Made by a program: the position numbers and the translations under genes. A DNA stretch of 64,000 nucleotides, taken from Dictyostelium discoideum (taxonomy: Eukaryota). Of this stretch, positions 37,559 to 49,014 are shown piece by piece. The first letter of the stretch is position 1. Every line of letters starts with the position of its first letter. The notes under the pieces are model-generated. The model was not told where the DNA came from. It did not search any database and saw nothing but the letters and a program-made list of their open reading frames with translations. Location of the stretch: the NCBI GenBank assembly GCA_000004695.1, contig CM000151.3, positions 7,296,001-7,360,000 on the forward strand, written 5' to 3'.

Positions 37559-40500
37559 ATGCAATACGTTAATGGTAATGATATTTCAAGTCAAAGTATT
37601 CATGAAGTTTTAGAACTTGCATTTTCAACAAAAATCCCATGGACAAAATTAGAATATGAATCAAGTGAAAAACATATAATACATTCCTATTCATCACATG
37701 AAAGAGGTATTTATTTAAGTAAAGGTGTTGCAGAATTTAATATTTCACCAGAAAATATGTATGAACTTTTATTGGATATTTCTTCAAGATCAAAAGTAAT
37801 TATTATTATTATTATTATTTAAATTTTTAATTAATTTTTTTTTTATTTTTTTTTTATTTATTTATTTATTTAAATAAATAAAAGAAAAAAAAAAAAATTA
37901 TTAATTACTAATTATTTTTTAAAATTTTAAAAAAAGTGGGATTTTCATTGTAGAGAAGCACATATTATTGAAGAATATGATCATTTAAATCATATTATTC
38001 ATTTAAATTTTACAAATCCATTAATTAGTAATTTGGATATGAATTTATATAGAAGTTGTAAGTATGATCCACAAGAGAGATTATTTGTAATTGCTATGAG
38101 ATCAATTGAATTGGAGGATGGTGATGTTGATCAATTTGAATGTTTACCAAATGGATGGGTAATTCAAGGTTTAAGAGGACAAAAAGATAAATGTAAGATG
38201 ACATTCGTTCAACAATGTGATCTAAGAGATATAGAACTTCAACGTATTCCAGGTTATAAATCATTCAATAGTAAAGAGAGACTTGAGGATTTTCAATTTC
38301 TTACATTGTTTCCTGCCACTGTAAGTGGTAGACTTGCAAAGATTTTCGAATCTATAGAACTATACATATCAAACAATGTGAAGGATATTGAAACCAAGGA
38401 TATTCGTATCTCAATTATGGAAAAAGCAGAAAAGGAGGTAAATGAAATGTTTGGTACAACCAATCCAGACTATGGTTGGAAAATTTATTTAAAGAAATTG
38501 GATATGGAAATTCTAATTAAAAAGACAACCTCTGGTTACTATATGATTGGTAAGGGTAGTTTTTCTTCGAGGTATTCACCAGAGTTATTGGCTGATGTAC
38601 TCTATCAGAAGAATCCTTTCGAATGGGATACTTTTTATGATAAAACTAAATTGGTTGAAAGTATCAATAGTTCAATCAGAGAGGTCGAGGTTCATTATAG
38701 AATGTGGAGAAATACAATCACCATGAGATTGCTACAATCCGTTAAAAAAGGACCTGGTAATTTCTCATCGGTACATTGGAGAAGTATTTGTTCTCCAAAT
38801 TATCAAGTGGCTGATGGTATCGAAGTACATTATCTTCCTACTGCACTCTTAAACTATGGTTTAGGTGATGGTAGTTTCACAAGTTTCTTGGCGGCAATCG
38901 AGGTTAAAGGTTATCCAACTCCTTGGGAGGAAGAGATGGTAACTAAAATGTTTGCTGCTAGAATCATTTCAAATCAAAATAGTATCATAAATCATGTAAA
39001 TAAATTAACAGGTGGTTCAGAGATGATAAGAGAATTACCTGTTATTCCTTCAGTTCAACATCATTGTGGTGATGTTGGTTCTCATATTGGTACTCCTCAA
39101 GTCTATAATGCAATGGTCGAAAATTTTGCTGATATACTTTTAGATGAAGGTAATAAAGATGGAAATGTAGTTTCTTCAAAAAATAAAAGAAAAAGAAATA
39201 AAAATAATGAAAATAAAAATAATAATAATGATAATATAATTGATGAAGAAATTGAACAAGAGGAGGAAAATATTGAAAAAGATCAACAACAAACCCAACA
39301 ACAACAAACTCAAAAACAACAACAACAACAACAACAACAACAAAAAACACAACAACAACCACAACAGCAACAACAACAACCACAAGAACAACAACAAAAT
39401 CACTCACAACTAAAAAAAGAAATCAAACCTACAAGACCAAGTATTCGTTTTACCTATTTATTAAGTAACAGTAGTAGTGGACAACGTCCAATTGCTTGGT
39501 ATGAATCAAAAAAACAACCATTCTTATTTTTGGTTAGTGATAGTAGTGAGAGAAAAGGAAAGATTCAAAGAAAGACTTATTATTTCTCAAATTCAGGTTT
39601 TGATAATTTACCAGAGGAAGTGGTTCAAATTATATTTTCCAATTTATCGGCAATCAATATTGTCAACTTATCATTAGTTTGTAAAAGATTTAAAATGGCA
39701 ACTGATAGTCCAATTCTTTGGAAAAATCTTTATAAAAGTAATCCATTATTTCATAAAAAGACACCAAAAAGAAAACAAATCATTCATTCAAATCTAAGTA
39801 ATGATGAAAATAAAGTAAATTCAAATTCTGGTGATTCTGCTGATGGTTCATCAAGCCAAGAAGAAGAAGAACAACAACAACAAAATCAACAACAAAATCA
39901 ACAACAAAATCAACAACAACAACAACAACAAACATTTGACCTTTCAAATATTAATTTAAATGATCCAATATCATTATTAATGGTATTTACAAATGGAATA
40001 ATTCCTCAAAATTTATCACCAACTGAAATAATAAATGTTGGTGGAATAGTGTCTCAAATTGATTTGAATGATCTTTCAAACGTTGAAACTCTTATTCAAC
40101 AATTACCTCATCAAGTTTTATCATTGATTCAAATGAATACACTTGATGCAAAGATTCAACATTTATCAATGATTAGTGGAATGCCAGCAACCATTGGTCA
40201 AGAATCACCAATCAATAAAAACTCTTCAGATAATCCAAAACCAAATGCATACAATAAAAGAGATAACAACTCTTATATTCCTGATGAAGAGTTTATTAAT
40301 TGGAAATCACATTACACTGAAAAACATAAGCAATCAAAGAGATGGGTTAATATGGAACCAATTCGTATCACCCCTCTAAAGGGTCACAATAGGGCAATCA
40401 AAGCTGTAAAGAGTGAGGGTAATTCAGCTATCACCGTATCAACAGAGAAAAAAATCAAATTTTGGAATTTAAACACTGGTCAATGTATTGGAGACTACGA

Positions 40501-41443
40501 AGGTGAATCAGGTGTTCTCTCTGTAGAGTATGATCACACTCAAAAGTCATCTTGTATTTGGCCATTGTCAGATTATACCAAAGTCCACATTGGCCATAAG
40601 AATGGTACCGTCACTATGGTTGATTTCATTGAACAACCAATTGAAGTTATTCATACATCAAGACCAACCAATTTGGCTGATGGTTTCGATTTCACCTTTC
40701 CTGGTAAATATTTGATTTGGGAACACACAATCATTCACTATTGGGATGTTGAAACAAGTACACTCTTGTGGAATGAACTAAATGCTCACACAAAGAAAAT
40801 CACTCAATCAAAGATTGTCGCACAACATGAACTTTCTAATAAAGGTATCGTATTCACAACTAGCTCTGATAAATCTGCAAAAGTTTGGGATTTAACAAAT
40901 GGTACTTGTATAAATACTTTGGTTGGCCATTCATATGCCGTCAATTGTATTGAACCAATTGGTGACTATATGGCTTTGACAGGTTCCACTGATAAAACTC
41001 TTAAACTTTGGGATCTTAGACAAGCCTCAACATTTATATCTAGTTACTCTACTAAACACACTGGTCCAATTAGATGTATTTCCTATCAAGAAAAGAATGG
41101 TATTGTTTTAAGTGGTAGTGATGATGGTTCAATCATTGCATTTAACTTGGATAATTGGAATCTTTCAAATATCTCTGTTGTTAAAAAACCAATCTTTAAT
41201 AATGTTATTGGTAATATTGGTACAACAACAACAACAACTACTACTACCACTACAACTACAACTACTACTACTTCAACTACAAATAATACTAATGTACCAG
41301 AGATTCCAAAGATTAATTTAGGTACTTTTAAGGATTCCAAAAGACTTCATAATCATGAATCTGCTGTAACTTGCATTGAATCTGATGAAGCTGGTTTTAT
41401 TAGTGGATCACAAAATGGATTGGTTTTGAGATGGGACTTTTAA
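37559..41443 (+). CDS. fbxA: START lipid-binding domain + F-box + C-terminal WD40-repeat protein, 1247 aa; probably FbxA/ChtA; 2 exons 37559..37795, 37937..41443
   Basis: Exon 1 ends ..LLLDISSRSK, then a phase-0 GTAATT..AG intron, then WDFHCREAHIIEEYDH..., which gives a START-like domain. F-box: LPEEVVQIIFSNLSAINIVNLSLVCKRFKMATDSPILWKNLY. WD40 repeats in the last ~350 aa, for example GHSYAVNCIEPIGDYMALTGSTDKTLKLWDL. Long polyQ and polyT tracts. The spliced length of 1247 aa equals the length I recall for D. discoideum FbxA. Confidence 0.7.
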
Positions 41444-41817: not shown

Positions 41818-42487
41818 CTAATTAATACCCCAAACCTCAACAACATAAGGTTTGAAATCATTTTCCTTTGAGAGTACTGTATTATTAAAAGTTTCGGAAG
41901 GACCTGAATAACCGTGAAGGAATTCATTATCCATCCATAATCCAAACATTGAACCACCACCAATTGAAATATAATCGTGACTTGCATAAATGAACATGTC
42001 ATTCTCTTTTGTCCATCGGAAGATATCGAAATCTGGATATATTTTGAATAAGAAAGTTTCACCACTACCAAAGAATACATCTTTTCTAGGTTCAACACGG
42101 TCAGATAAAAATGCACCAAAAATGTATCCATTCTCATCTTGAATCAAAAGAATGGATTGTTCAACTGTTTTGATTCTTTTATAAAAAGTGATGAAAGAAA
42201 CACCGTCGTTGGTGGTGTTGAAGAGTAATTCAATATCTGAGCCTTGAGTACGAATTGGAAGATAATGACGAAGTTTTTTATAGATTTCTGGTGTCATTAA
42301 TATTTTCTCTTGGAATTGATATTTAGTTTGATCTTGTAATAATTTTGGTGTTGTTGAGAAAGTCTCATCAAAAGAGGAGGCTAATGAATCACTAGATACA
42401 AGGGATCTAATATTATTATGACTACCATTTCTCCAATGATTAATTGAAATGGGTGCTGTTGGTTTTATACCTGTTGTAGTAACAGTG

Positions 42488-42519
<32 letters not shown>

Positions 42520-43324
42520 GGTAGTATTATTATTATTATTATTAATCGATAATGGTGCAATAACTGTTTGTTGACTATTGAAAGAACCTGTTAAATTTGG
42601 ACTTGAGGTTTGAGGTGAAAATTTACTATCAACAATCAATTGTTTTAAATAAGAGAAACAAGTATGAACACTTGTAGGATCACTACCTCTGAAGAATAAA
42701 GTTTGAATAGAGTTATCTTTATGAATGATTGCATAAATACAAGGAAAGATTAAAACCTTTTTATTTGCTCCAGTGATTTCATCTGTAACTGTCATTTCTT
42801 CTTCCTCTTCCATTAAATTTAATTTTGAAATTTCTTTTTGAATAAAAGCATCATGTTCCTCTTCTTCTTTTTTACTTTTAACCTTTGATTTTACTTTACT
42901 ATTATTATCATTGCCAATGCCACCAACTGAGCTACCATTTATACCTTTGTTAATTTTATCTTTAATATAACGTTGTTCTTTATACCAATCTTTTGAAAAA
43001 TGAGCTAACCATTCCGATTTATCGAATAAATATTTACAACTAATAATATGTGAATATTCAGCATGTAATTGAACAGATTTACCTATTAAACCTGGTTCCA
43101 TTATTGATTGAAAGATTAATTGATATGGTGTAAGTGTAAGATGACCAACCACTTTTTGATTTCTCATAAAACAAACTAATTTTTCTTTAACTATACTTTC
43201 TTTACTAATTCTTTCAAATCTACTTGTTGCTGAGAATGGTATATGAATTGGTGGTTTATTATTTGTAATTGGATTATTACTTATACTATTACCACTATTA
43301 TTATTACTATTATTATTATTATTG

Positions 43325-43355
<31 letters not shown>

Positions 43356-43369
43356 TACTATTATTATTA

Positions 43370-43404
<35 letters not shown>

Positions 43405-44631
43405 GTTGTTATTATTATTACCATCATCAAATGCCATTTTAATTTCTTCTTTTGATGGTTTAAATAAATCATTTACATTTAAGGATGAACCACCTGATAA
43501 AGCTCTTCCTCTATTATTACTATTATTAGTAGGTGATAAACATTCGATACCACCACTACCATTAATACTACTACTACTAACACTACTACTACTATTATTA
43601 ATATCTAATGAATCAATTGAATCAGCAGATGTTGTAATAAGGGATGGTGGTTGTTCAATAATTTGTTCCTCATTTAAATTTAGATTCTTTTTCTTATAAA
43701 CCCATAATTGTGTACCAGGTTTAAGTAATTTTTCAGAATGTAATAATCTATTAGCTTGAATTAAAACATCTCTTGGCATTGAGAATTGAAGTGAAATACC
43801 AGTAAGTGTATCTTTTTCTTTTACAGTATAAAGTTGATAAATATAATTATTATTTGAAATATTTGGGGGTTCTGCAAATTTACAACCTATTGAACCTGAT
43901 CTCGTTCTATTACCGCCACTTGGTGTAAATCCACCACTATTATTATTATTATTATTATTATAATTACTATTATTTCCATTTAATAAAATATCAATTGATG
44001 GTGAAACTAAATTTGTTGAAGCACTTTGAGATCTTAATCTCTCATTGTTGTTATTATTACTAGCACCAATCATTGGTGATAAAGATGGACTATTTATTGG
44101 AGGTACAGCAGATGATAATGAAATTGGTGATAATGGTGTACCACCACTAAGTGGATGAGTTGTAACAGGTGTACCACTAGTTCCTTCATGATAAGGTGAA
44201 TTTAAATTGATTTTCTTTGGTTGATTATTTACATTCTTTGGTATTCTCTTTTGAATGGTTGGTGAATCTAATAGATTGGTGATCTCTGGGAAATGAGATT
44301 TATTTGATTTATAAAATGATGAAATCAATGCCAACAAGTGATAAAGATACGGTTTTTTTTTATCCTTTAATTGACTTGCTAATTTATCCAATTTCTTCTT
44401 TAATTTAACTTTAAAATCTGTAATTGCCATTGTTGAATCACTAAAAACAATATCAAATGATGGTGCTGCTGATGGATATAAAAATGGGAATAAAATGATC
44501 ACTACAAATTTTCTATTATCAACATTTGCAATACAAACTCTATCTGCTAATGATAATTTTTCAAATGTAACATATTCAAATTTCTCTGTAATTATATTAC
44601 CAAGTTCTTGATGTAAATCTAATGGTTTATG

Positions 44632-44713
<82 letters not shown>

Positions 44714-46251
44714 GTTATAAATGGTGATTTTTTATTTAAATTTGAAATATCTTCTTCATCTGTACTTTCCTCTAATTCATTTGATAACATTTTATTCATT
44801 AAATCTTGTGATTCTTGAGAAATTCTAATATTAGTTGGTAATACTAATTTTGGAGGACCATCTTCCTTTGTAAAGATATCAATCATTTCATTTGTAATTC
44901 TCCACATATTGAATTGATTATCTTTACCAATTGATGTTACATAATGTTGTTTTTCACCACCTGCTACTTCAGTTGTTCTCCAATCAAAATTTAATATAGT
45001 ATCTTTATGTCCACCTGATAATGAAAGTATTGGATGCTCTGAACATTTTGCATTCCTAAATTGAATATCATTATATGATCCCTTTGATGAAATTGAACCA
45101 ATAATATCATTATTAACAAATGGCTAAAAAAAAAAAAATAATAAATAAATAAATATTAAATTAATACTTTTATTATTATTTCCAATTGATCAATGATATT
45201 TTTAAAAATAACAAGGTGTATATATAAATATACATACAAGGAATCTAGCGATATTACAAGTTGAATCTATATTATATCTATGTAATAAATTACTTGGAGG
45301 TGTTACATCCCAAACTTTTACACATTTTTCAGTTGGGCCACATGTTAATAGTTGATTTCTTTCCTTTGGACTCCATTCAATATTTGAAATTGAACCTATA
45401 TGTGCTGAAACACATGATAATGGTGATCCAAATTTCTATAAAAAAAAAAAAAAAAAATAAAAAAAAAAAAAAATGTTATTAATAAGTGTTGTTATAAAAA
45501 TATTAGAGTTTTTATTAATAATAATAATAATTACTCTTATATCCCAAATATTAAATTCACTAGCATTTGAAGTTGCTAGCATTGTACTTGAATTTGGATT
45601 CCAAGCGATTTGAGATAAATTTGATCTTGCTTTAAAGTTTGTACTAATTCCACCACTACCTTGAGTACGTTCTCTAATATCGAAAATATTTGCCATACAA
45701 TCAGAGCTTGCACTAGCGATTAAATTGGTCTCTTGTGTATTCCATGAGAGTGATGTAATATGTCTAATATGTGATTTAGAGAATTTAACAATCAATTTCT
45801 CATCTCTAACATTCCAAAGATAAATTGAATAATCCTTTAATGATGATGATACTAATAAATGTGATTCAGATTTATTTGTACTCCATTTTAATAAATCACA
45901 TTCAATCTCTTTAGAATTTGATTTTAATTTCTTAAAAATACATGGTGTTGTTGTTGGTGATGATGTTGTGGTTGTTGTCGATGATGATGATGATGAATGA
46001 TGTGATGATAAAAAACCTTTACTAATATTATTACTACTACTACTTGCTTCATCTATAATACTGATTTTATCATCTTGTGTATCCTTTGGTAAATTCAATA
46101 TGAATAAACTTCTCTCACTTGAGATTGCAACATGTTCACCTGTTAAATCAACTGCCAATGATGAGAATTTATATTTATTCTTTTTATCTAAACATGTTGA
46201 TACAATTGGTTGGAATGAATTTTGTTTAAACTGATTTGTACCATCCATCAT
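41818..46251 (-). CDS. multidomain protein with N-terminal WD40 repeats, LysM, GRAM and C-terminal TLDc domains (OXR1/NCOA7-like C-terminal half); 3 exons 46251..45535, 45435..45238, 45123..41818; about 1406 aa
   Basis: ORF 45436..46251 (WD repeats, for example LVSSSLKDYSIYLWNV and ASASSDCMANIFDI) ends at a phase-0 GTAATT donor. A 198-nt exon (KFGSPLSCVSAHIGSISNIEWSPKERNQLLTCGPTEKCVKVWDV...NIARFL) follows. A GTATGT..AG intron then leads into an open frame that is continuous with ORF 41818..44907 (PFVNNDIIG...GHKDTILNFDWRT...NMWRITNEMIDIF...). LysM: YTVKEKDTLTGISLQFSMPRDVLIQANRLLHSEKLLKPGTQLWV. GRAM: ERISKESIVKEKLVCFMRNQKVVGHLTLTPYQLIFQS. TLDc: DIELLFNTTNDGVSFITFYKRIK...GYIFGAFLSD...GSGETFLFKIYPDFDIFRWTKENDMFIYAS...GLWMDNEFLHGYSGPSETFNNTVLS. 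Confidence 0.75.
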
Positions 46252-46421
46252 TAATATTAAATTTTATTTTTGATTTTTTTTTTTTTTTTATTTATTTTTT
46301 GATTTTTTTATTTTTTAACGAGAATTGAAATGAATAATTATTATTATTATTAAAAATTATTATTATTATTATTATTATTATAAATTATAAATCCATTAAG
46401 TAATAATTATTATTGGTTCTG

Positions 46422-46499
<78 letters not shown>

Positions 46500-47074
46500 A
46501 AAAAAAAAAAAAAAAAAAATTTAAAAAAAAAATAAAAAAAAAAAAAAAAAAAAATCATATTGTTGGTTAACCCTAATTACCAAATCTAAACAAGAAAAAA
46601 ACAACTTGTCAATTAGTTTTTTTTATATATTTTTTTTTTTATTAATCTTTTCCAGTTTTATTTGTTTGATATTATTATTATTTAATTATTTTTTTTTACA
46701 ATTTTTTTTTTTTTTTTTTTCAAACTCCGATACTATAATTTCATTTTCAAGGTATTATTTTTTTTATTTATTATTATTTTATAATTTTTTATTATTTTTA
46801 ATTATTATTATTTTTATTAATAATTTTAAAATTTTATTATTAAAAATTATCTTTTAAAAATAATATTCATTGCTCATTTTCAATAAAAAATGATTTCCGA
46901 AAAAACGAAATACACCTAAAATTTCCTTAAGATATTTTTTATTTTTTTTTTCCAAAAAAAAATAAAATTTTTAAGATATTTTTTAAAAAATAAAAATTGA
47001 GATGTCTTTTTTTTAAAAAAAAAGGAATTTCCTAAAATTATTTATTTTGTGTTGATTACTAATTTTTTTTTTTT

Positions 47075-47112: not shown

Positions 47113-49014
47113 TTAAGAATTTGAATGATTTTTACCTGATAAAACTCTGTCTAAATTAAAAGCAGCACTAATTAAACTTAAATGAGTGAAAGCTTGTGGA
47201 AAATTACCTAAAGCTTCACCACCAATACCAATTTCTTCAGAGAATAAACCCAAATGATTTGCATAACCTAACATTTCATCAAATATTAAACGAGCTTTAA
47301 CTAGATATTCTTTATTGACAACGGAAGCTCTTGTTAAACTTTCGATTAACCAAAATGTACAAATATTGAAAGTACCTTCTTCACCATCCAAACCATCGGT
47401 TGCAATATGATCATCATGACCATGGGTTAGATTATAACGAAATACCAAAGAGTTTGCAACTAGACCTCCTTCTTCCACTGGTTTGAGTATTGCTTCTAAT
47501 GTTGCTAAATTTCTTGGGTCTGATGGAGCCATAAAGAAAACCAACGACATTATCAATGTTGAAGCATCCAATGCTTTACTACCATAGAATTGAGTAATCT
47601 TTGTCCATTTATCACGTGGGGCTGGGAATGATCTACGATCTGCCAAACGCAATCCTCTATCCAATGCCACCCAACACATTATCTTGGAGTAGGTGAAATG
47701 TTGTTTACCACTTCTAACTTCCCAAATACCTTCATCCTTGGTTTGATAATTATCAGCCACCCAATCGACCATCTTCCTAATATGTAACCAAAAATCGTAG
47801 GAAACCAACGACCCATACTTATTGGAGAGATAAATCGAATCCATAAACTCGCCGAAAATGTCCATTTGAACTTGATTGATTGCATCATTACCAACTCTAA
47901 CCGGCTTGCTATCTCTATAGCCTGAAAGATGGTCCAATGTGTATTCGGGGATTTTATCATCGCCATGAATGCTATACATGACACGCACGGGCATGCTTCT
48001 TTTTGGGTCGTCATAAACTGCTTCGGCACATCTTGTTTCCAACCATTTCATAAATGCATGTGCTTCTTCAATGAAGCCAATTCTAATCAAACCATAGACA
48101 GAGAAACTTGAATCTCTCAACCAAGCGTATCTGTAATCCCAATTTCTAGGCCCACCCAATCCCTCTGGTAGCGAACAAGTTGGCGAGGCAATGATTGCAC
48201 CCGTTGGAGCGAATGTCATAAGCTTCAAACATAGTGCACTACGTTCCACGATTTCCCTCCATCTTCCCTTGTAAGTGCATTTCTCCAACCATTTTTGCCA
48301 GTAGAATATGGTGCCCATGAATAATTCATTCTCCAATTTGCCAATATCCTCTGGAACACGATAGAGATGCTTTGGAAACAAGTCTACACTATCAAACGAT
48401 TCCTTTAGTATGAACACCACCACATCATTCTCTTTGACAGTGAAGACCGATTCTAGGAACCCCCCATTTCCATCATTGATAAGTGTCATTGGAATCTTTG
48501 ATATTAAATCTAAATTGATCTTTGTAGGCTCAGATTGAATATTGTAACCAAATTCTGTTTTCTCCATTTTATGTTTATCTAATGCGAAATTGAATGTTGG
48601 TTTGAATATCATTTTCATATCTAATTTGCCTCTGATTCCTTTAACTTTTCTAACTAACCATTTCGAGCCTTTTCCATCTACAACTGGCATATAATCAATC
48701 ACTGATGCTACCGATTCAACTAAATGAAATCTACTCTGAAGTACATTTGTATCTGGCCAATAGCTTTGCTTGGTTTTGGTTTGTTTACACTTCGATCTCA
48801 ATGTTTCTGGTGCAATACGCCAATGTCCACCCTTTTCACAATCTAACAATGAGCAAAACATAGCTGGTGAATCAAAATGCGGCCAACACATAAAATTAAT
48901 ATCAGCATGAATTGATATCAATGCACTTGTTAACATATTTCCAATAACTCCATGATTTTCAATTAATGGATAAGATTCACAAACTCCATCAATTTCAATT
49001 TCATTACTTGCCAT
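47113..49014 (-). CDS. glycoside hydrolase family 15-related protein (glucoamylase / bacterial-type trehalase-like), intronless
   Basis: Single 633-aa ORF. GH15-type motifs: NWDYRYAWLRDSSFSVYGLIRIGFIEEAHAFMKWL and FWLHIRKMVDWVADNYQTKDEGIWE. No signal peptide. By eye the GC content is clearly higher than in neighbouring genes (many GGC/GCC/CGC codons). The short ORFs 47679..48029 and 47929..48111 are alternative frames of this gene. Confidence 0.75.
   Translation of the reverse strand: MASNEIEIDGVCESYPLIENHGVIGNMLTSALISIHADINFMCWPHFDSPAMFCSLLDCEKGGHWRIAPETLRSKCKQTKTKQSYWPDTNVLQSRFHLVESVASVIDYMPVVDGKGSKWLVRKVKGIRGKLDMKMIFKPTFNFALDKHKMEKTEFGYNIQSEPTKINLDLISKIPMTLINDGNGGFLESVFTVKENDVVVFILKESFDSVDLFPKHLYRVPEDIGKLENELFMGTIFYWQKWLEKCTYKGRWREIVERSALCLKLMTFAPTGAIIASPTCSLPEGLGGPRNWDYRYAWLRDSSFSVYGLIRIGFIEEAHAFMKWLETRCAEAVYDDPKRSMPVRVMYSIHGDDKIPEYTLDHLSGYRDSKPVRVGNDAINQVQMDIFGEFMDSIYLSNKYGSLVSYDFWLHIRKMVDWVADNYQTKDEGIWEVRSGKQHFTYSKIMCWVALDRGLRLADRRSFPAPRDKWTKITQFYGSKALDASTLIMSLVFFMAPSDPRNLATLEAILKPVEEGGLVANSLVFRYNLTHGHDDHIATDGLDGEEGTFNICTFWLIESLTRASVVNKEYLVKARLIFDEMLGYANHLGLFSEEIGIGGEALGNFPQAFTHLSLISAAFNLDRVLSGKNHSNS

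Follow-up and report, generated by a model that had tools for sequence, protein, structure and literature searches.

Cryo-electron microscopy of the yeast SEA complex has placed the N-terminal portion of Sea3 (termed SIP and made up of a propeller and an RWD domain) structurally in the SEACIT/GATOR1 wing, with the propeller sitting over the junction of Sea1(SABA) and Npr2 and the RWD domain resting against the C-lobe of Npr3 (PMC9646525). The C-terminal portion of the same protein (SAP, comprising the Sec13 blade, solenoid and RING) lies within the SEACAT/GATOR2 core, and a flexible connector between SIP and SAP ties SEACIT to SEACAT (PMC9646525). We describe here a gene on the minus strand of a 64,000-nucleotide (nt) stretch of the Dictyostelium discoideum AX4 genome, from chromosome 2 (GenBank assembly GCA_000004695.1, contig CM000151.3, positions 7,296,001 to 7,360,000; this whole stretch is hereafter called the window, and positions are counted from its first letter), in which the N-terminal half of a WDR59/Sea3-type protein is continuous with a module of the OXR1/NCOA7 type ending in a TLDc domain. 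Through this domain, OXR1, NCOA7, TLDC2 and mEAK-7 attach to the V1 sector of the V-ATPase. Direct V-ATPase binding has been found for the TLDc domains of NCOA7, OXR1 and TLDC2, and in NCOA7 the substitutions G815A, G845A and G896A abolish binding, with S817A, L926A and E938A weakening it (PMC8608904). Yeast Oxr1p is reported to drive V-ATPase disassembly (PMC11094088).

The locus is one three-exon protein-coding gene, a chimeric paralogue that combines two known modules, and we are highly confident that both the architecture and the identities of the modules are right. Its coding sequence of 4221 nt is spread over three exons separated by GT..AG introns, with both junctions in phase 0, and specifies a conceptual protein of 1406 amino acids (aa). 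An earlier note, made by a model from the letters of the window, had proposed a single gene with three phase-consistent exons and a product of this length, and the length is reproduced from the spliced exons. The parts of the gene are as follows.

46251 to 45535, minus strand: exon 1, 239 codons (aa 1-239), with the start codon, a Ser/Thr-rich insert and the first WDR59-type β-propeller blades.
45436 to 45534, minus strand: intron 1, 99 nt, GTAATT..TATAG, 92% A+T, all three frames stopped.
45435 to 45238, minus strand: exon 2, 66 codons (aa 240-305), with the top-scoring WD repeat and the following blade.
45124 to 45237, minus strand: intron 2, 114 nt, GTATGT..TTTAG, 89% A+T, all three frames stopped.
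45123 to 41818, minus strand: exon 3, 1101 codons plus TAG (aa 306-1406), with the final WD blades and the RWD, LysM, GRAM-like and TLDc domains.

Exon 3 is a single uninterrupted frame in which the WDR59-type part reads on into the OXR1-type part without a stop, and the fusion is independent of the splicing inference because this exon alone runs as one open frame from WD blades through TLDc. The frame 5' of the first Met of the long open reading frame (ORF) remains open for 72 further codons, back to the acceptor at 45124 as the earlier note had read it, and encodes conserved WD blades. The length of 1100 aa that the note attached to the ORF at 41818 to 44907 needs correcting: the ATG-initiated ORF has 1029 aa, and 1100 describes the full exon-3 frame back to the 45124/45123 acceptor. 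In exon 2, Pfam places a WD40 repeat at residues 243-282 of the product. If intron 1 is left unspliced, the protein ends at 271 aa. The G+C content of the window as a whole is 22%.

The fusion could be an artefact of gene modelling, with a WD40 gene and an adjacent OXR1 gene transcribed separately, and the ORF list does suggest two genes, as the earlier note remarked, since it offers one ORF of 271 aa and another of 1029 aa. The annotation of Heterostelium album PN500 (GL290991.1, 4428-8949) points the same way, in that the locus is entered as two adjacent genes encoding proteins of 666 aa (WD40) and 538 aa (TLD). We consider such an artefact very improbable. The open frame with conserved blades that precedes the long ORF, the sharing of one uninterrupted exon by RWD and TLDc, and the stops met on reading through either intron all argue against it. 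The H. album boundary itself falls inside the LysM domain, which it bisects at a short in-frame intron (..LIPGT[intron]ILWVYK..), and because of this position the two-gene split is almost certainly an annotation artefact in which one gene was cut in two. Single collinear models are found in six other species, namely, Dictyostelium purpureum, Polysphondylium violaceum, Cavenderia fasciculata, Acytostelium subglobosum and two EukProt dictyostelids. In D. purpureum, the orthologue DICPUDRAFT_94046 (1264 aa, three exons) has both introns at the same positions, with identical codon boundaries (..DIR/KFGSP.. and ..ARF[LV]/PF.., the slash marking the intron); exon 1 aligns with its exon 1 (aa 1-222), and the counterpart of exon 2 is its exon 2 (aa 223-290).

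Seven orthologues align over their full length with the window protein, and the architecture is present in at least eight dictyostelid species, which span all major dictyostelid groups. The N-terminal modules of the family share about 47% identity, with many invariant positions. Protein searches returned no orthologue from D. discoideum, D. citrinum or D. firmibasis, and neither the 1406-aa model nor the 1029-aa ORF had an exact match in the protein collection searched, though the product of the neighboring gene was present there; the deposited D. discoideum model may differ from the one presented here.

The N-terminal half contains two domains, which together account for residues ~1-585.

44884 to 46194, minus strand: WDR59/Sea3-type β-propeller (aa ~20-385), spanning both introns, identified by phmmer against PDB.
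44290 to 44631, minus strand: RWD domain (aa 470-583), in which the motif YPSAxP is invariant, identified by profile search, AlphaFold2 (AF2) and Foldseek.

Many Pfam propeller families match residues ~105-385. When the N-terminal 600 residues were compared with PDB sequences by phmmer, human WDR59 was the best match (residues 60-497, E = 9e-36) in a single alignment that takes in both propeller and RWD, and yeast Sea3/Mtc5 matched over residues 73-344 (E = 6e-19); WDR24 constructs aside, WDR59 and Sea3 lead the PDB sequence matches. A profile of the RWD region retrieved from the PDB sequences only human WDR59, at residues 388-499 (E = 4e-6). The AF2 model of this region (pLDDT 85) has the topology α-4β-2α, and yeast Sea3 chains occupy the first three places among its Foldseek matches, ahead of Ubc9 and the GCN2 RWD domain; the Pfam RWD family by itself reaches only E = 0.57. 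This region of the protein is thus the N-terminal half of WDR59/Sea3, a β-propeller followed by an RWD domain, the very half that contacts GATOR1/SEACIT. The "WD40 propeller-like" description in the earlier note holds insofar as a propeller is present, but a generic WD40 identity is ruled out by the RWD domain and by the WDR59-specific best matches. The biological reading changes with this identity, WDR59/Sea3 rather than generic WD40.

We extended the comparison with an exhaustive HMMER search of a profile of the N-terminal family against 1.84 billion representatives, for which the best 150 matches were listed, many of them bacterial-type WD40 arrays. Six dictyostelid fusion proteins stand at 555-781 bits, and then there is a gap. 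Among the matches listed below it are multi-repeat WD40 proteins and about 25 matches in a single stretch. The best single-stretch matches outside the family, among those listed, are the canonical WDR59 proteins of Balamuthia, Acrasis, Chromosphaera, Planoprotostelium and Arcella, and most of the single-stretch matches, with Exaiptasia among the named examples, carry the canonical WDR59 C terminus. The search returned no fusion outside Dictyostelia, with the limit that one scoring below ~182 bits would escape it. Across the 152 proteins compared, LysM, GRAM-like and TLDc domains occur in none but the six dictyostelid ones. The fusion family keeps 41 of the 67 columns in which canonical WDR59 proteins are at least 85% identical.

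The C-terminal half follows a low-complexity region that runs from the RWD domain into LysM, and contains the following features.

43699 to 43830, minus strand: LysM domain (aa 737-780; Pfam PF01476, E = 1.3e-6, 28.7 bits versus a cut-off of 20.9).
43429 to 43479, minus strand: conserved motif NVNDLFKPSKEEIKMAF, 17 residues (aa 854-870), shared with the H. album protein and with 6 of the 7 aligned orthologues.
42610 to 43227, minus strand: predicted GRAM-like domain of the PH superfold (aa 938-1143), interrupted by a helical hairpin of ~70 residues.
41824 to 42312, minus strand: TLDc domain of the OXR1/NCOA7 type (aa 1243-1405; Pfam PF07534, E = 9.5e-50).

The order of LysM, a PH/GRAM-like region and a C-terminal TLDc domain is that of the long isoforms of OXR1/NCOA7 (OXR2/NCOA7 E ~1e-30), from which the fusion protein differs by about 600 additional N-terminal residues of WDR59 origin and by the hairpin of ~70 residues in a GRAM-like domain that lies under the Pfam GRAM threshold. 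The earlier note had called this a LysM-GRAM-TLDc module. LysM and TLDc are confirmed by Pfam, and LysM is conserved across all orthologues. For GRAM, and for GRAM alone, profile searches fall short, and they do so only at curated thresholds: Pfam reports no GRAM match on the full protein, and the isolated region gives E = 0.003 (17.8 bits versus a cut-off of 23.6) over the first third of the model only. The isolated regions of 6 of the 7 orthologues also match GRAM, the best at E = 2.4e-5. In the AF2 model of this region (pLDDT 77, confident in only one of five models), five strands precede the helical hairpin of ~70 residues, and a further four strands and a C-terminal helix follow it; with this model, Foldseek retrieves PH-type domains only, at weak E-values. 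An hhalign comparison of the GRAM-like profile with a stand-alone LysM-TLDc protein aligned the expected core strand at an E-value (0.49) that is not significant. On the basis of the predicted fold, we call the region at aa 938-1143 a probable GRAM-like PH domain with an insert. The insert (positions ~42820-43020, aa ~1007-1073) is a predicted two-helix hairpin with acidic runs (EEEE, EEEEE). In NCOA7 and TLDC2, poly-E motifs upstream of TLDc showed a nonsignificant trend toward stronger V-ATPase binding (PMC8608904).

The 17-residue motif, N[IV]N[DNS]LFKPxKEE[IV]x[MF]AF, sits between LysM and the GRAM-like domain and is conserved in every orthologue but the D. purpureum model. It has no Pfam family match and may be a short linear interaction motif.

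The nearest solved relatives of the TLDc domain in PDB are zebrafish OXR2 (4ACJ, E = 3e-32) and NCOA7 (E = 8e-30). Mapping through the 4ACJ alignment recovered the equivalents of all six NCOA7 residues relevant to V-ATPase binding (G815, S817, G845, G896, L926 and E938); they lie in NDGVS, IFGAF, GGGS, VLSK and VVEVW and are invariant in the family alignment. Two word-index searches for a stand-alone dictyostelid OXR1 or for the TLDc side of the fusion yielded no more than short TLDc proteins, the H. album fragment and a single LysM-TLDc protein from Logan, and they say little because known family members were missed as well.

Relative to WDR59/Sea3, the chimera lacks the half that builds the GATOR2 cage, that is, the blade that completes Sec13, the α-solenoid and the C-terminal RING/zinc finger, and has LysM, PH/GRAM-like and TLDc domains in their place. 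A phmmer search with residues 521-1020 of the canonical Strigamia WDR59, the part that follows the RWD domain, retrieved 21 other WDR59 proteins and none of the fusions. Pfam gave no RING/zinc finger match (PF17120) over the full protein, whose C terminus is TLDc. It is a separate paralogue that stands beside canonical WDR59: in P. violaceum, one genome encodes the fusion (CYY_009807) as well as a WDR59 of the canonical, RING-bearing kind (CYY_004680, 1556 aa), Tieghemostelium lacteum has a canonical WDR59 (DLAC_04388), and a further one comes from a EukProt protein that is dictyostelid judging from the EukProt naming style. Dictyostelids have therefore retained canonical WDR59, and the fusion is a chimeric paralogue; the alternative that it is the dictyostelid WDR59 orthologue with a swapped C terminus is ruled out by the canonical RING-bearing proteins of P. 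violaceum, T. lacteum and the other dictyostelid. In a neighbor-joining tree of the N-terminal module, the fusion clade and the dictyostelid canonical clade each have 100% bootstrap support, and the placement of the two within Amoebozoa is supported at only 8-53%. From these clade supports, the WDR59 duplication would therefore date to the dictyostelid stem or earlier.

With the cage-forming half absent, the fusion protein should be unable to replace WDR59 in GATOR2. Its simplest reading is that of an adaptor between GATOR1 and the V-ATPase, because the GATOR1-binding half has been kept and the GATOR2-building half swapped for a V-ATPase-binding OXR1 module. The N-terminal end would hold GATOR1, binding it in parallel to, or in competition with, canonical WDR59, and the TLDc end would hold the V-ATPase on endolysosomal or contractile-vacuole membranes. 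Such an arrangement could position the Rag-GAP beside the pump or could make OXR1-type control of V-ATPase assembly responsive to the GATOR/TORC1 nutrient pathway. By analogy with its parts, the chimera suggests a direct link between nutrient signaling and the vacuolar proton pump. We advance the adaptor explanation as a whole only tentatively, as a possibility falling somewhat short of an even prospect, and the narrower proposition that both ends bind their canonical partners is, to our minds, possible but more doubtful.

Among comparable proteins, mEAK-7 (TLDC1), a V-ATPase binder whose name marks it as mTOR-associated, is a TLDc protein linking the V-ATPase with TOR signaling, at least by name and localization; its TLDc domain is more distant (E ~1e-14 to 1e-11), and it differs in having no WDR59-type module, LysM or GRAM. 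The metazoan KICSTOR, which holds GATOR1 on the lysosome, would be a functional analogy only if the adaptor reading is true, and it has no sequence or structural kinship to the chimera. Taken as a Rosetta-stone fusion, the gene might indicate that GATOR1 and the V-ATPase are physically coupled via a TLDc protein and that the chimera of Dictyostelia tethers the Rag-GAP complex to the pump in a KICSTOR-like manner or makes OXR1-type V-ATPase disassembly answer to nutrients, which we regard as a speculative and on present grounds unlikely extension.

Several observations weigh against the adaptor. Its mechanism is inferred entirely from the roles of the two modules in other proteins. The N-terminal module has diverged, with ~27% identity to canonical WDR59 versus ~38% among the canonical proteins, and 26 of the 67 WDR59-conserved positions are lost in the fusion family. 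Among the nearly invariant WDR59 positions that are gone from all fusion proteins are the PxGxG.VT motif and the Q...WS motif, and these losses could mark surfaces that are dispensable or retargeted. GATOR1 binding may likewise have been lost or retargeted because the linker between propeller and RWD, the equivalent of the Sea3 "N-loop", is low in complexity and not conserved in the family. The residues of the GATOR1-side interface are poorly conserved even between yeast and human (PMC9646525). At the other end, buried fold determinants account for four of the six conserved TLDc residues, so that what their conservation indicates is an intact fold and not a specific interface.

Part of this evidence would also fit a different protein, a dictyostelid OXR1 that regulates the V-ATPase and in which the propeller-RWD unit was repurposed as a generic platform for interaction or localization, with no contact to GATOR1. 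The far-diverged module with several invariant motifs lost, the unconserved N-loop equivalent and the "Oxidation resistance protein" name that UniRef gives the D. purpureum protein all agree with it, as does the failure of the patchy word-index searches to turn up a second OXR1-like dictyostelid protein. We nevertheless judge it unlikely. The propeller and RWD have been retained as a unit throughout the history of Dictyostelia at ~47% identity, they correspond exactly to the GATOR1-binding unit of Sea3, and the majority of the WDR59-conserved columns (41 of 67) are kept.

The same GATOR1-binding half, present without the blade, solenoid and RING and encoded in genomes that also carry canonical WDR59, could instead act as a competitive decoy, occupying the WDR59 site of GATOR1 and uncoupling GATOR1 from GATOR2, with the OXR1 part serving only to place or regulate the decoy. 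That the yeast Sea3 connector tethers SEACIT to SEACAT lends this some plausibility. A decoy would have no need, however, for a conserved LysM-PH-TLDc module of ~650 residues with its V-ATPase-relevant residues intact, and we think a decoy function quite improbable.

Both modules are well known, and their combination is new. The earlier note had described an OXR1-type module behind a WD40 domain as unfamiliar and had suggested searching for the same architecture in other Amoebozoa. The arrangement is indeed unusual, and a full-text literature search found no paper on a WDR59-TLDc or GATOR-TLDc fusion nor on this Dictyostelium protein; it is nonetheless already contained in deposited models of other dictyostelids, where the search for it succeeded, and none was found outside Dictyostelia in the HMMER search with its bit-score limit. 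The databases name the orthologues "hypothetical", "WD-40 repeat-containing" or "WD40 repeat protein" and, for D. purpureum in UniRef, "Oxidation resistance protein".

As for the surroundings of the gene, positions 46252 to 46600, 5' of the start codon, consist mostly of very long T homopolymer runs on the gene strand with few other bases between them; T-rich runs are typical of Dictyostelium promoters, and those at 46252-46600 are extreme. The upstream neighbor (47113 to 49014, minus strand, with its ORF at 47116 to 49014) encodes a GH15/trehalase-like protein identical to DDB_G0277045, whose relatives in the same 90% cluster are mostly of 653 aa versus 633 aa. The convergent downstream neighbor (38033 to 41443, plus strand) encodes a large protein that combines F-box and WD40 domains, with long tracts of poly-Q, poly-N and poly-T; its ORF is listed from a TTG, and the true start, possibly with more exons, lies elsewhere.

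By fusing the WDR59 half that binds GATOR1 covalently to a V-ATPase binder of the OXR1 type, and by its retention across all Dictyostelia, the gene offers a concrete, testable hypothesis about how signals might pass between the V-ATPase and the Rag/GATOR branch of TORC1 nutrient sensing, and about roles that TLDc proteins may have besides binding the pump. GATOR2 mutants exist in the genetically tractable Dictyostelium, as in the case of mios- (PMC11204349). The analysis also corrects database naming, both the uninformative labels on the orthologues and the orthologue that was split into two genes. Should the proposed mechanism be wrong, the gene would still be a clean case of module shuffling between two lysosomal systems; should the coupling reading be true, OXR1/NCOA7 may also interact with WDR59/GATOR1 in other eukaryotes, where the two are not fused.

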